A DNA stretch of 64,000 nt from NCBI GenBank assembly GCA_046759445.1, contig JBHICG010000005.1, positions 1 through 64,000 of the forward strand, in the 5' to 3' direction. Shown here one piece after another: positions 32,608 to 39,466 of the stretch. The stretch is from Candidatus Scalinduaceae bacterium. GTDB taxonomy: Bacteria > Planctomycetota > Brocadiia > Brocadiales > Scalinduaceae. Below the pieces are notes generated by a model. The model was not told the DNA's origin. It saw only the letters and a program-made list of their open reading frames with translations, and did no database searches. Position 1 is the stretch's first letter. Every line of letters starts with the position of its first letter. The position numbers and the translations under genes were made by a program.

Positions 32608-32802
32608 TATTTAATCCGAAAATAGATTTCCGATCAGACTAGCCCTTTGGACTGGGGTTGTGGTGTGATTTTACTTACTTGTCCGAAGGAAAGGCATAAT
32701 AAACTAAGCAATTCCCTTGTTGTGGGATTGCCAATGACTAATTTGTTGTATTATCTGTCATACCCGTGGCATGTTCGCATGACAAGCAGACAGACAATTT
32801 AA

Positions 32803-34944: not shown

Positions 34945-36225
34945 ATGAAGGCACTAAGAATAGCCATATTTTTTATGATACCTAGCTTTTTGTTGTCTGA
35001 ATTATGCATTGCTCAAAAGGCGGAGGATTATTTTAGGAGGGGGACGGGTTATTTAGAAACAAGACTTATAGACAAAGCAATTGTTGAATATAAAAAGGCT
35101 TTACCTTTGCTAAAAGAAGATCAAAGTCAATTAAAGGCCGAGATATATTCGGCCCTTGCAAATGCATATAATTGGAAAGGAATATACAAAGCTGCAATTA
35201 CGGCGTGTAAAAAAGCCATAGAAATTAATCCTGATCTCGCTAATGCACACTATAATCTGGGGTTTGCATACAGAGAGGAGAAGAAGAAGAAACTGGCAGA
35301 AAAGGAATTTGCGCTCTATGAAAAATTACTAAAGCAACAAGGAGAATACATTAAAATTCCTGAAAAACCAACTTCAGAGGATATTAATAAGTATGTAAGA
35401 CTTGGAGATAATTATTTTAAGGAAGGTAAATTTGATGAAGCAATATCAGAATACAAAAAGGCATTAGAAATAAAATCCAATGAAGGCATACTCAATAAAC
35501 TTGGTAACGCTTACAAAAGAAAGAGGCTGAAAAATAAATCTACAGGTAAAACTGCAAGAGAGCCTTTGAAAGAACAACGAAAGTCAACAGAAACTGATTT
35601 GGTTGCAGATGAAAAGTATTTAAATAGCATGCCGGAATTGGGAGAAGCAACTGAAGTGGCCCCAGATACTTCAATGGCTGATTCCTTGGCTGAGGGCATT
35701 TTATATTATAATAAAGGGATGCTTGATAAGGCGATAGAAGAATTCAAAGAAGTGATTGAAATTGATCCAGAAGATGTAAACGCTTATTACAACCTTGGAA
35801 ATGCTTACGTTGATAAGGGAATGTTTAACGAAGCAATTTCTGCGTATAAAAGGGCGATAGAAATAAATCCCGAATTTATAGATGCTTATCTTAATCTCGG
35901 GATGATTTATTTGAATAAGGACTTAACTGATGAAGTGATTTCTTTATACAAACAAGCCCTAAAACATAGTCCAAATGATACATTCTTATATTATCATCTC
36001 GGAGAAGCATACGCCTATAAGGAACGATATCAGAAAGCTATAACAGAGTTTAAGAAAGCTATATCCATAAACCCTATGGATCCGGATTCACAGTACCGTT
36101 TAGCAGAAATGTATTACGAAACTAAACAGTTTGACCTTGCATTGAAGCACATAAGGCGTGCTGAAGAATTGGGATACTCTGTGGAACAGGATTTTATTAA
36201 TAATTTGAAAAAGGAAACTCAATAA
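34945..36225 (+). CDS. Exported TPR protein
   Basis: Signal peptide; many TPRs (AHYNLG, AYYNLGNAY, AYLNLG); start placed at the ATG of MKALR. Confidence 0.88.
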   Translation: MKALRIAIFFMIPSFLLSELCIAQKAEDYFRRGTGYLETRLIDKAIVEYKKALPLLKEDQSQLKAEIYSALANAYNWKGIYKAAITACKKAIEINPDLANAHYNLGFAYREEKKKKLAEKEFALYEKLLKQQGEYIKIPEKPTSEDINKYVRLGDNYFKEGKFDEAISEYKKALEIKSNEGILNKLGNAYKRKRLKNKSTGKTAREPLKEQRKSTETDLVADEKYLNSMPELGEATEVAPDTSMADSLAEGILYYNKGMLDKAIEEFKEVIEIDPEDVNAYYNLGNAYVDKGMFNEAISAYKRAIEINPEFIDAYLNLGMIYLNKDLTDEVISLYKQALKHSPNDTFLYYHLGEAYAYKERYQKAITEFKKAISINPMDPDSQYRLAEMYYETKQFDLALKHIRRAEELGYSVEQDFINNLKKETQ

Positions 36226-36956
36226 AATATATAGTACGCTTAGAAAACCAGTTGTATAAACTAAATTGAGTAATTTATGTGATCGCAACCTTTGGGTTGT
36301 GTAATTTCAAAGGATTTTTAATCTCCTGCCAAAACATATAGTTGGACTCCTACAGCTTTTAGATACAGAATCTCTGAATTCACAAATCCTTCGAATTGGC
36401 AAGTTCTTTCCCTTTCCCTGATGTGCAATCATTACAAAGTCTGTCATAGACTGTCTAACACTTTACGTGACACTTCTTTAGATTTTCCAAGACCATCAAA
36501 AATTGACTGATTTTCCAGTCAACTATTGCTGAATGATGTTATGAATAGTAAACGCACCTTATCTTATATATAATAAAGACTTAAATCGAAAATGGAGTGT
36601 TATGAGATACTAAGTTGATTATAATAAACATTGTTCTCCCTGAAAGGATTTCCTCTCTAACTCTCATCTTACAAAAAAACCAGAACTTAACTTATTTATA
36701 TACCATGGCTTACAAAAATATTTACTTTTGAACACATAATGGTAAGAAAATTGTTATATATAAGTTAGCTTTTATTATTATCGATAACTTTTCTTTTGTC
36801 TACTTTGTTTACATCAGGCACATACTCAACTATGAAAACATGGCATGGAGATAACCCTGATGCATAATCTAAAGTATATGGCGTATAGAGGGATAAGATT
36901 TTAGAAAGACAGAACAAGTAAAAGTGACAATACCGATATTTCGAGAACATATAACT

Positions 36957-37295
36957 ATGATATATCATATCAAACGAAATGAAAGGCGAGTTTGTGAAAG
37001 ATTAGAACGCACACTGCCAATAACATTACTTGATCATAAAGTAAAATCAAAAAATATAAGCTCTCGCGGTATTTATTTTGAAACGATAGCAAGTGATGTT
37101 GAAAAGTACTTACCAGGAAAAGCCATTATGGTTGAAGTAGAAGCAACAGCTTCCAGACCTGGACTACCTGAAAGAAAAATTAAACTTGCTGGGATTGGAG
37201 AAGTTATCAGGTTAGAAGAAATAGATAACAACGAATGTGGTAATAAATTAGGCGTGGCTTTAAAGTTCAGTGAGAAACTTAAAGTATATTTTTAA
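36957..37295 (+). CDS. PilZ domain protein (c-di-GMP receptor candidate)
   Basis: ERRVCER (RxxxR) and NISSRG ([D/N]xSxxG), GEVIR, GVALKF. Confidence 0.8.
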   Translation: MIYHIKRNERRVCERLERTLPITLLDHKVKSKNISSRGIYFETIASDVEKYLPGKAIMVEVEATASRPGLPERKIKLAGIGEVIRLEEIDNNECGNKLGVALKFSEKLKVYF

Positions 37296-37403
37296 TTTGA
37301 ATCTTTTTAGATTGTATAAGCAGTATCATAATATTCTCGGACATTAAGTGTCTAAATTAAATAGACATGGACAACAAACATTAAAAGGAGGGAGGGTTAA
37401 TTC

Positions 37404-37592
37404 ATGAATGCATTGTTAACAATCTCAGAAGTTGCTGAGAGAGTTGGTGTAAGTACAAGAACAATCCAGAGATGGGAAGCGACAGGAAGGGTTAAAAAGG
37501 CAAAAAGGGATCGAAGGGGCTGGAGAGTATTTGACCACGATGATGTTGAAGACCTAATAACATTTCATAATATGGTTGCATCATTTTCATGA
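37404..37592 (+). CDS. Small stand-alone MerR-like HTH protein (BldC/Xis-like)
   Basis: LTISEVAERVGVSTRTIQRWE...RDRRGWRVF; no effector domain; strong RBS AGGAGG. Confidence 0.85.
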   Translation: MNALLTISEVAERVGVSTRTIQRWEATGRVKKAKRDRRGWRVFDHDDVEDLITFHNMVASFS

Positions 37593-38455
37593 GATTTGAA
37601 GCGGAATAGACAATTTAGCTTATATAAAAACAAAATAGTGAATAATAAGGCTGAAGGCCAATATATATAAGTATAGGTCCTACCATGTCTGTCCAGGACT
37701 GTCATAGACACTCCATGACACCGTAGATTTTAACTTGACAATTAAAAATATTTCTATATTTTCATTAACAACTTCTGGCATATTGACGTAATTACCCACA
37801 TTAAATCTTAGGTGAAGTGAAGTGCAAAAGGCCACTGTTACTGTTCCGCATTTTTTCTCACACCTATATCTGCATTTTCCGCAGAGACATAATAATAAAT
37901 CATCGGTTCAATCACTTATACCATGTTTCAGGGTTTATGAAACACTTCAAATAAATCCTTCGAATTTCCTGGTTTTCAATCCTGCTTTTGTTCGAGGGAT
38001 TATCGTTCGTAAAACATATATTTAAGATTATCTCGAACAGGTGCGGTTGATTTTAAGGATATGCTTATTTCTACTTGAGAGCGTTGGTATAGGCACGACT
38101 AGTCCTCAGGAGCATATCCAAAGCCATGATGGACGCTAATGTAGTCAGGAGATCGTGTAAATGGGAGCGAATAGTAATGGCATTGTAAAAGACTAAAGAA
38201 GGCAGACATTTAACGAGGTAGATATCTTTCAAACGTACAGGGATGTGCGGAGGTGTTTTCCACTGAGATAATATACGGTGGTGTGTGGACAAATAAGGAT
38301 TACTTATCTTTTAAGAGGATAGAAGAATGATGAACTTACAGAACTATTATGTAAAAATGTATTTTAAAAAATTAAGACATTTTCTATAATCTTTTATTTT
38401 CCTTTTGTTTTCGGAATTTCAAGATAGGACTGGTCTCAGAAAGACAACTCCAATT

Positions 38456-39466
38456 ATGAATTTAAAAAAAACAATCCGTTGGCCACTTGTCATTATTGCA
38501 CTGCTGGCAGCAGCATTTTTTACGATACCCAACCCCGTTCACCGTATTCTCCTGAAAAAAAATCTGATGCCAGTCATAGAGAATAAAATTTATCGCAGTG
38601 CGCAGCCGGCTGCATCAGATATTGCCGCCTGGAGTAAGCAGTTGAAATTACGCAGTATTGTCAATTTGCGAAGTGGTGGTCACTGGCTGAAAGATGAAAT
38701 GGCTGCTGCAAAATCAGAGGGACTTAATTTTTATAGTGTCCATATAAGTTCCGGTCATTTACCTGAAATGCATGTTTTGCGTAAACTGATTCATATTTTA
38801 GACACAGCGCCACAACCTTTATTAGTGCACTGTTTAAGCGGAATAGATCGTTCCGGTTTTTTTTCAGCATTGGCAATTTTACTTAACGGAGGAAATCTTG
38901 AACAAGCTCGTAAACAATTCAGTCTATCAAAAGGTTTCACACCATTTCGTGACGCAGATGCCCTACTTTTGTTCTTATCAGAATATGAAAACTGGTTAGC
39001 TGGAAATAAGCTGCACCATACACCTGAACATTTGCGTCATTGGGCTCAGGATATTTACATTCCTTATTTCTACCATGCATCCATCACTCCCATCACATTC
39101 CCTGATCAAGTTCTTGTTGGTCAGTCAACTCCCTTAAAAGTTGCAGTCAAAAATACTAGCTATCAAACGATTCCCTTCCGCACCAGCGAAAGGGGTGTTC
39201 ACTTAGGAGCTTTTTTACATAAGGTGGATTCACAAGGAAAGTTACCCACGCAACTTAGAGGTCGTTTTATTGACCTTGATCTTGCACCTAACGAAACAAC
39301 AGTGCTTGACCTGCAATTACCTTCTATAACGGAACCGGGGAAATATCTTTTAGAAATCGACCTGGTTGATGAGCTGGTACGCTGGTTTCACGAAATGGGC
39401 ATCCCGATGTATCAATTTGAATTTGAAGTTGTTCCAACATCTCCCCCCCCTATCGACCCGACATAA
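38456..39466 (+). CDS. Membrane-anchored/exported protein tyrosine (dual-specificity) phosphatase with C-terminal Ig-like domain
   Basis: IYRSAQP, SIVNLR, P-loop HCLSGIDRSG; C-terminal beta-sandwich (DLAPNET, PGKYLLEIDLVDE). Confidence 0.8.
   Translation: MNLKKTIRWPLVIIALLAAAFFTIPNPVHRILLKKNLMPVIENKIYRSAQPAASDIAAWSKQLKLRSIVNLRSGGHWLKDEMAAAKSEGLNFYSVHISSGHLPEMHVLRKLIHILDTAPQPLLVHCLSGIDRSGFFSALAILLNGGNLEQARKQFSLSKGFTPFRDADALLLFLSEYENWLAGNKLHHTPEHLRHWAQDIYIPYFYHASITPITFPDQVLVGQSTPLKVAVKNTSYQTIPFRTSERGVHLGAFLHKVDSQGKLPTQLRGRFIDLDLAPNETTVLDLQLPSITEPGKYLLEIDLVDELVRWFHEMGIPMYQFEFEVVPTSPPPIDPT

Follow-up and report, generated by a model that had tools for sequence, protein, structure and literature searches.

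Helically phased GACA arrays beside a small MerR-type gene in a Scalindua-family genome: candidate operators of a dispersed surface regulon

BldC of Streptomyces, a MerR-like regulator of 68 amino acids (aa), assembles into head-to-tail multimers on direct repeats (2:1 and 4:1) and bends DNA (PDB 6ama, 6amk; PMC5859096, cited here, like the papers on the PEP-CTERM box and FleQ below, for part of its text). We compare BldC and three other described systems with a locus in the first 64,000 nucleotides (nt) of contig JBHICG010000005.1 of a Candidatus Scalinduaceae bacterium, a 64-kb stretch hereafter called the window, with site coordinates given on its + strand. At this locus, the gene of a 62-aa stand-alone MerR-type winged-helix-turn-helix (wHTH) protein (37404..37592, +), the candidate array binder, follows a divergent stand-alone PilZ-domain gene (36924..37295, +), and two arrays of 10-nt units, site 1 (36415..36486) and site 2 (37663..37731), lie upstream and downstream of the two genes. 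The 62-aa protein shares with BldC the small stand-alone MerR-type wHTH, and the targets reported for BldC are likewise direct repeats of variable number on one helix face (PMC5859096). It differs in scoring 28 bits against the BldC model NF033787 (HTH_BldC; cut-off 77), with PDB BldC chains matched by sequence at expectation values (E) of 0.45–0.52. The array unit is of GACA type with a 10-nt period, whereas the part of the BldC paper cited here gives AATTnnnnC (PMC5859096). Furthermore, the genes of the present family appear sigma-54-dependent and, in Omnitrophota and Planctomycetota, stand at the head of an operon for polysaccharide export.

The PEP-CTERM box with its PrsK/PrsR system resembles the arrays in being a dispersed, lineage-specific motif followed by a spacer and a sigma-54 −24/−12 element, and both precede, across long intergenic stretches, many units linked to exopolysaccharide, most of them single genes (Haft et al., 2006, PMC1569441). 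In the cited part of that paper, the motif contains TTTACA, lies ~63 nt before the promoter and is reported in Proteobacteria only; the arrays described here have another sequence, stand 141–324 nt from the promoter, and their likely binder is not the activator. A further likeness is that the C10 locus of this genome, which holds a paralogue of the 62-aa gene, scores best against XrtA/PEP-CTERM export and chain-length models, below their cut-offs. Membership of PrsR (TIGR02915) was rejected, the best match here reaching 424.7 bits against a cut-off of 502.6, which was exceeded in one relative only (G004). FleQ of Pseudomonas is similar in that one motif serves sigma-54 and sigma-70 promoters and genes for adhesins, for exopolysaccharide and for c-di-GMP-related functions share the regulon; it differs, in the cited part of the account, in being an AAA+ activator that reads a 14-bp pseudopalindrome, GTCAAT-NN-ATTGAC, and senses cyclic di-GMP (c-di-GMP) itself (PMC10723142). 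A FleQ-type regulator (PF06490) was also rejected for this genome, where the single match, in a 255-aa frame, is sub-threshold (19 bits, cut-off 22).

On DNA, Xis proteins are likewise arranged along phased direct repeats. Xis-type recombination directionality factors and RacA (PDB 4j2n, 5i44) are fold matches of the 62-aa protein, and the RacA DNA-binding domain is the best Foldseek match (template modelling score, TM, 0.80), with MerR N-domains also ahead of BldC (ranks 33 and 39; TMq 0.60 at rank 33) and phage Pukovnik Xis at rank 43. The present system differs from Xis in lacking a recombinase context and in having a Wza-like export gene as operon partner, and from RacA, which binds as a symmetric dimer. 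Open-access full-text literature yielded nothing relevant on sigma-54, PilZ or a regulator of this type in anammox bacteria or Scalindua.

Phased arrays and the small MerR-type family

Comparison of sequences makes it fairly probable that sites 1 and 2, together with a third cluster directly before the ribosome-binding site (RBS) of the 62-aa gene, are operators of the 62-aa protein, the arrays also serving its C10 paralogue. The core of site 1 (profile R1, 59.5 bits, E 6.5e-16) occupies 36439-36473 and consists of four 10-nt units, GTCTGTCATA / GACTGTCTAA / CACTTTACGT / GACAC, preceded by a conserved flank, CAAnC..T.AC..A. Site 2 (R1, 43.2 bits, E 8.7e-11) starts 95 nt past the stop codon of the 62-aa gene and has its core, GTCTGTCCAG / GACTGTCATA / GACACTCCAT / GACAC, at 37687-37721. 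These two ~35-bp direct sites read exactly as quoted in the initial annotation, and a repeat search places them in a 41-nt direct repeat (36433-36473 and 37681-37721; 71% identity, 1248 nt apart). The 10-bp phasing proposed there (CTGTC at 36441/36451 and 37689/37699; GACAC, by direct reading of the window sequence, at 37707 and 37717) is present and non-random: CTGTC-N5-CTGTC occurs in the 64-kb window at 36441 and 37689 only, with 0.06 expected and two or more copies in 0 of 100 shuffles, and GTCTGTCNNNGACTGTC at up to 2 mismatches recurs at the same two places only (0.09 expected). With units of 10 nt, successive units face the same side of the helix.

The strongest evidence comes from relatives of the 62-aa protein, for which the best 80 of 343 metagenomic loci and the best 80 of 101 loci from species-representative genomes, almost all Candidatus Omnitrophota and Planctomycetota with Scalindua included, were examined, giving 74 (170 nt each) and 79 non-identical upstream regions, respectively. 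GACA density upstream of the helix-turn-helix (HTH) gene in the 74 metagenomic regions is 9.7/kb, against 2.9 and 2.4 in two controls (~3.5-fold). Same-strand GACA–GACA pairs lie 10, 20 or 30 nt apart 39, 25 and 14 times in the metagenomic regions, against 14 pairs in total for the remaining distances in the 4–32-nt range (0/0/0 in both control sets), and 41, 23 and 12 times in the genomic regions, with 10 at other distances (controls 0/0/0 and 1/0/0). GACA-N6-GACA or TGTC-N3-GACA is found in 30 of 74 metagenomic regions versus 0 of 79 controls and in 28 of 79 genomic regions versus 4 of 145 controls. Within the 325,661 nt of the 80 metagenomic loci, 12 of the 14 three-unit arrays lie on the strand of the HTH gene and no more than 200 nt 5′ of it. 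The model R1, which was built by sequence only from the dispersed sites of the window genome and of G005 (same family, other genus), gives 19 matches at E ≤ 1 over those loci, in 16 of them, and all 19 lie 35–328 nt 5′ of the HTH start, a zone of ~8% of the searched sequence. The common core is ..ATGACTGTCATAGACAGTCC.. in the metagenomic loci and ..ATGTCTGTCATAGACTGTCT.. in the window genome. The phased-direct-repeat reading by analogy with BldC, proposed for the window alone, is thus supported at family level, with exact 10-nt GACA phasing beside the protein's own gene (~150 loci).

The position of the array beside its own promoter suggests autoregulation of the HTH family. Since the small wHTH is the sole DNA-binding protein regularly encoded beside the arrays, autoregulation through the phased units is the economical reading. 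Where a sigma-54-like element accompanies the array (44 pooled regions), the array starts 9–91 nt past the −12 in 35 cases and 148–168 nt before the promoter in 9. The conserved partner of the family is a Wza-like polysaccharide export gene rather than PilZ: it is present in 57 of 80 metagenomic and 76 of 80 genomic loci, immediately following the HTH gene in the same orientation in 48 and 66, while a PilZ profile from the A2 paralogues found none in either set (0/80 and 0/80). The PilZ–HTH combination is not supported as a conserved pair; apart from the window, a single relative (G009) shows the two genes side by side, once.

The third cluster (37340..37373, +; GACA at 37340, 37364 and 37370, TGTC at 37349) stands directly 5′ of the RBS AAGGAGGGAGGG (37385-37396) and the ATG at 37404. 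It had been reported from the window sequence and proves to be one of only 34 clusters of at least four TGTC/GACA words within 40 nt in the 3.62-Mb genome. Related words occupy the same place in the C10 paralogue and orthologues, and the cluster is a probable autoregulatory operator of the HTH gene. C10, the single paralogue in the genome (74% identity), lies between a histidine kinase–activator pair and the Wza-like export gene; its canonical sigma-54 promoter reads TGGTACATTGATTGCG, and TGTCATAGACATTACGTGTCT comes after it. Between that promoter and the RBS, C10 and its orthologues in genus g3 carry TGTCATAGA..TGTCTAAC..CATGACA, and this candidate operator is the best match (9.8 bits, E 0.029) of R1 over 15 C10/g3-type loci. 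The layout and words of the g3 orthologues are as at C10, and −24/−12 elements are found at most homologues in the order. A scan of the contigs of species-representative genomes with the single protein as query returned generic MerR proteins only. Another of the 34 clusters is located at 32754-32795 of the window, ~125 nt before an NnrS/DUF1858 membrane protein gene (start 32918); it has no match to R1.

The protein itself was correctly recognized as a stand-alone MerR-like HTH protein, on which Pfam (MerR_1, MerR, HTH_17), the AlphaFold 2 model and Foldseek agree. The model (pLDDT 90.8) has helices at 7-14, 18-27 and 45-61 plus a wing, and the protein is of MerR type without a dimerisation coiled coil or effector domain. 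The NCBIfam excise domain TIGR01764, a domain-level model and not a functional assignment, was passed by 0.3 bits (29.1 versus 28.8). Over the open reading frame (ORF) of the HTH gene, an RNA-library contig is identical to the window (37408-37606). RNA cover derives from two metatranscriptome libraries, available as contigs only, which give no strand, ends or levels and could include DNA carry-over; window parts lacking such cover carry no meaning.

A genome-wide scan, of the kind proposed in the initial annotation, uncovered a dispersed family: with up to 1 mismatch allowed, the genome holds 9 copies of the 17-nt core and 0 of its reversed control. Alignment A1 (19 copies, site 1 included) combines 13 copies of the window genome with 6 of G005. 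The consensus is ..CAACnCTnACCAT GTCTGTCATA GACTGTCTAA nACnnTCCAT GACAnTTTT, in which TGTC and seven further columns are invariant; the pattern is three to four 10-nt units with GAC(A/T) or GTC(T) around a TGTC-ATA-GAC core. Run on 92 genomes of the order, R1 finds 15 strong sites, 1 weak site and 2 opposite-strand rows in the window genome, 9 sites in G005, 2 in G001, 1 in G002 (both of the same genus as the window genome) and 1 in G091, and none in the remaining 87 genomes. The ~13 copies beyond sites 1 and 2 are single, oriented to the downstream gene and fused to promoter modules. One copy, on C81 (~12.9-13.4 kb, contig end), adjoins a divergent 154-aa ORF, which we take to be like a transposase of the tyrosine type associated with repetitive extragenic palindromes (REP). 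Another short dispersed repeat, containing cgcaacctttgggttgtg, lies directly after the TPR gene at window 36241-36323, with at least 11 genome copies of 76–83% identity and a 30–40-nt core 85–97% identical in G001, G002 and G005; it may be a terminator-like or REP-like element.

Several observations count against assigning the arrays to the 62-aa family. The unit sequences differ, with a family consensus of yaGGACAwAC and units of AGACT, AGACA or TGACA in this genome, and by the two simple patterns given above fewer than half of the family loci carry arrays. The counts are not independent, because the loci are related and the metagenomic and genomic collections may overlap. In the third cluster the 10-nt register is not cleanly kept, with GACA words 24, 6 and 30 nt apart. 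No homologue of the 62-aa protein was found, even at E ≤ 10, in the site-bearing G005, G001, G002 and G091 (88%, 97%, 93% and 78% complete), and conversely four g3 genomes carry the HTH protein without dispersed sites. At the corresponding place before the wza-like gene, where relatives of G005 carry an activator and the small HTH gene, G005 has transposase-like ORFs (L136, C163, 1-1300), and the 5′ end of its wza-like orthologue looks cut short. The activator neighbouring the HTH locus is also missing from this 88%-complete assembly, and the absence of the HTH gene from G005 may be a secondary loss or an assembly gap.

Promoter regions and genes behind the arrays

The array copies split by their downstream sequence into two classes. 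Sites 1 and 2 fall into different ones, each belonging to its own promoter region with its own kind of flank, and the earlier view that they bracket the gene pair is not sustained. The looping of the locus that was suggested along with it likewise found no support. Class A comprises 8 full copies including site 1, in which ~300 nt of ~70% conserved sequence leads to a sigma-54-type −24/−12 element. In the window, this spacer (36487..36739, +; conserved in the 8-copy alignment and by within-genome BLAST) ends at TGGTAAGAAAATTGT (36740..36754, +; −24 GG, −12 TTGT), 298 nt 3′ of site 1 and 170 nt 5′ of the PilZ gene. All 8 full class-A copies carry the pattern TGG(C/T)A..N..TTG(C/T), at offsets of +290 to +298 relative to the array, against a genome-wide rate of 0.063 per kb per strand. 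The −24/−12 spacing at 36740-36754 is canonical, the genome has rpoN and 14 activator genes, and on these sequence features the element qualifies as a sigma-54-type promoter. In G005 a sigma-54 element follows the array at 6 of 9 sites (+141 to +324), and the orthologous sites on G001 C11 and G002 C19, in a flagellar gene cluster, have one at +150 and +151. At the orthologous place in the window genome (C3, ~57.7 kb), the class-A blocks and promoter are kept and the array is lost, which indicates that array and spacer are separable modules.

The class-A spacer also contains a near-palindrome, GTTGATTATAATAAACATTG, at 36614-36633. In the form TGTTGATTTTAATAAACA, ~120 nt 5′ of the −24 element, it is found in 8 of 8 class-A copies, in the G005 copies and in the array-less C3 copy, and is a candidate site of the true sigma-54 activator. 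A sigma-70 promoter suspected within class A, 43 nt past the array, was dropped because simple scoring gave no consistent box, and an opposite-strand sigma-54 element in ATGGTAAGTGTTGCA beside the array was dropped because its spacing is, by eye, 2 nt too short. The spacer and the sigma-54 element are covered across 36589-36794 by an RNA-library contig with 3 differences.

Class B consists of site 2, the copies on C64, C5 (~88.1-88.4 kb) and C19 of this genome, and one on G001 C10. In each of the four copies belonging to this genome, the array is followed after 13, 14, 32 or 33 nt by an exact TTGACA, spacings that keep the helical face; in the window, the sigma-70-like promoter TTGACA-16-TATTTT (37735..37762, +) begins 13 nt past site 2. 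No sigma-54 element reached threshold in the class-B leaders of these four copies, where only scattered low-scoring matches were seen. The ~300-nt leader (37763..38025, +), conserved in a 5-copy alignment, includes an RBS-like stretch, a short ORF-like "MQK.." frame (37822-38025) that shifts between copies and is not kept, and a hairpin, GTTTC-N9-GAAAC (37925-37943). The first gene past site 2 and its leader encodes a membrane protein with a tyrosine-phosphatase-like domain (38405..39466, +; Pfam Y_phosphatase2, Y_phosphatase3), and other class-B leaders stand before giant RHS-repeat genes and an apparently secreted Peptidase_S74 protein. Rfam gave no match at E ≤ 1 in 35500-39000 or in 12 motif loci, with noise only at E ≤ 10, such as c-di-GMP-I-GGC near the C5:88482 copy (12.2 bits, E 9.4). 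Between the C5 copy and a secreted-protein operon lies the interval ~87.9-88.1 kb (L033 991-1122, minus strand). Before the phosphatase-like gene, window 38044-38333 is G+C-richer and non-coding, with repeats on C66 (87%/175 nt) and C21 (85%/93 nt); its part 38086-38220 is covered by several contigs of both RNA libraries. The whole stretch has no Rfam match and may be either the remnant of a gene or an RNA that has escaped recognition.

The PilZ gene of the window encodes 123 aa from the GTG at 36924, with an in-frame ATG at 36957. It scores 13.1 bits against Pfam PilZ (PF07238; E 0.13, cut-off 22.5), and three paralogues score 22.7, 16.8 and 24.0. The c-di-GMP-binding motifs of PilZ domains are RxxxR and (D/N)xSxxG. 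In an alignment of 11 paralogues, R22, R26, N44, I45 and G49 are invariant and S46 nearly so, and the RxxxR and NxSxxG columns are kept; a PDB profile search with these 11 paralogues matched no solved PilZ structure. A predicted PilZ–HTH complex scored 0.00, which counts neither for nor against binding. Among ~12 PilZ loci in the genome (9 by Pfam in six frames plus divergent copies), PilZ-domain genes follow 5 of 10 class-A or class-A-like sites, as four 112–123-aa paralogues and one 226-aa protein with a C-terminal PilZ domain, and a sixth such site has a PilZ gene just upstream. The genes behind the sites also encode two RHS-repeat proteins longer than 2100 aa, a Peptidase_S74 protein, an apparently secreted DUF6250 protein, a GT4 glycosyltransferase and, following one of the PilZ genes, a priming sugar transferase. 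A possible further target is a Flp pilin operon at a distance of 1.7 kb, and two G005 sites precede PEP-CTERM proteins. This gene content points to control of surface and biofilm behaviour. The suggested link to c-di-GMP stands at the level of the regulon's content. Synteny stops short of the gene pair: G001, G002 and G005 share the upstream NnrS-like and TPR genes and not the PilZ–HTH stretch.

Competing readings and a possible mechanism

The arrays might instead be upstream activating sequences of an NtrC-type sigma-54 activator, the small HTH gene being merely a member of the regulon. We judge this unlikely, yet it is the best of the alternatives. Sigma-54 elements follow the arrays in every class-A copy, at two-thirds of the G005 sites and at the G001 and G002 orthologues; the array precedes the promoter by 148–168 nt in 9 of the 44 family loci with both; and an activator would explain sites in genomes without the small protein. 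All 14 activators of the genome have a C-terminal HTH, one of them is encoded directly upstream of the C8 site, and FleQ provides the precedent of a single activator for sigma-54 and sigma-70 promoters in the part of the study cited (PMC10723142). However, in 35 of those 44 loci the array lies past the −12, which is not an enhancer position, and only 1 of 80 metagenomic and 3 of 80 genomic loci have an activator gene in the neighbourhood of the HTH gene. The C8 activator was rejected as cognate binder, since none of 40 related genomes, G005 among them, has a relative that exceeds 45% identity, and the C10 activator is also kept where sites are few or absent. The four class-B copies whose leaders lack a sigma-54 element at the score threshold also speak against an NtrC-type reader. 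Furthermore, 10-nt repeats with 3-nt arms 6 nt apart misfit the dyads usually bound by Fis-type HTH dimers.

It is more doubtful still that another tandem-repeat reader, such as an OmpR/PhoB-type response regulator, binds the arrays and that their likeness to the HTH-family operators is partly coincidence. CTGTCATAGACTGTCTAA resembles what we take to be the E. coli Pho box, two CTGTCAT repeats. Class-B arrays lie just 5′ of the −35 box, the usual place of an activator, and the sites of G005, G001 and G002 would be explained. Response regulators are well-known direct-repeat binders, as the BldC paper notes in its cited part (PMC5859096). Against this, no candidate regulator is encoded beside any examined site, phosphate genes are absent from the regulon, the Pho box has a period of 11 nt and the arrays one of 10 nt, and the R1 matches lying solely 5′ of HTH-family genes, in 16 of 16 loci, would be left unexplained.

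That the sites are arm-type or att-like ends of a recombining or mobile PilZ–HTH cassette with the HTH protein as excisionase is very improbable: the 1248-nt spacing of the direct repeats, the narrow pass of the excise model with the likeness to Pukovnik Xis, and the loss of synteny past the TPR gene in G001, G002 and G005 would fit, but the ORFs of 33-41 kb include no integrase or transposase, the other copies are single and gene-directed, the two flanks run into different conserved modules, the family is syntenic with an export gene and not with recombinases, and the DNA contigs showed no empty site or 36439-37721 circular junction, joints at 36458 leading to other motif copies.

Under the favoured assignment of the arrays to the 62-aa family, the following mechanism can be envisaged. 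Proteins of the family are normally made from a sigma-54 promoter, before a Wza-like export gene and with an array beside their own promoter, and by analogy with BldC the 62-aa protein would bind arrays cooperatively as a multimer. In this Scalindua-family genome, the array has been copied to ~15 promoter regions of two kinds. Class-A arrays lie ~300 nt 5′ of sigma-54 promoters, and site 1 would serve the PilZ gene and, in all likelihood, the HTH gene that follows; class-B arrays lie 13–14 or 32–33 nt 5′ of a TTGACA box, and site 2 would serve the next unit, the leader and the phosphatase-like membrane protein. The sequences show the arrays with their phasing and genome-wide spread, the promoter contexts and the association with the family; the identity of the binder, its multimeric binding, the sign of regulation, any role of c-di-GMP and the action at −300 or beside the −35 box are what we infer. 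A bolder version, which we offer as a tentative and on balance unlikely proposal, is that an undescribed Omnitrophota/Planctomycetota family of 60–70-aa BldC-like DNA-filament proteins, made from sigma-54 promoters, reads GACA units one helical turn apart and gates polysaccharide export. In the window genome, arrays copied with promoter modules before PilZ receptors, sugar transferases and giant surface proteins could have turned it into the master switch of a c-di-GMP-linked surface regulon, acting at class A from 300 nt by bending the DNA between enhancer and sigma-54.

Anammox bacteria and Omnitrophota are mostly uncultured, and aggregation decides the working of anammox reactors and marine particles. 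The analysis provides a list of ~15 target promoters for a candidate regulator. If the favoured reading is true, the BldC mode, a chain of monomers on phased repeats, would extend to another superphylum and to sigma-54 promoters, and the locus would show how a regulon can grow by copying an operator and promoter module before paralogous c-di-GMP receptor genes.

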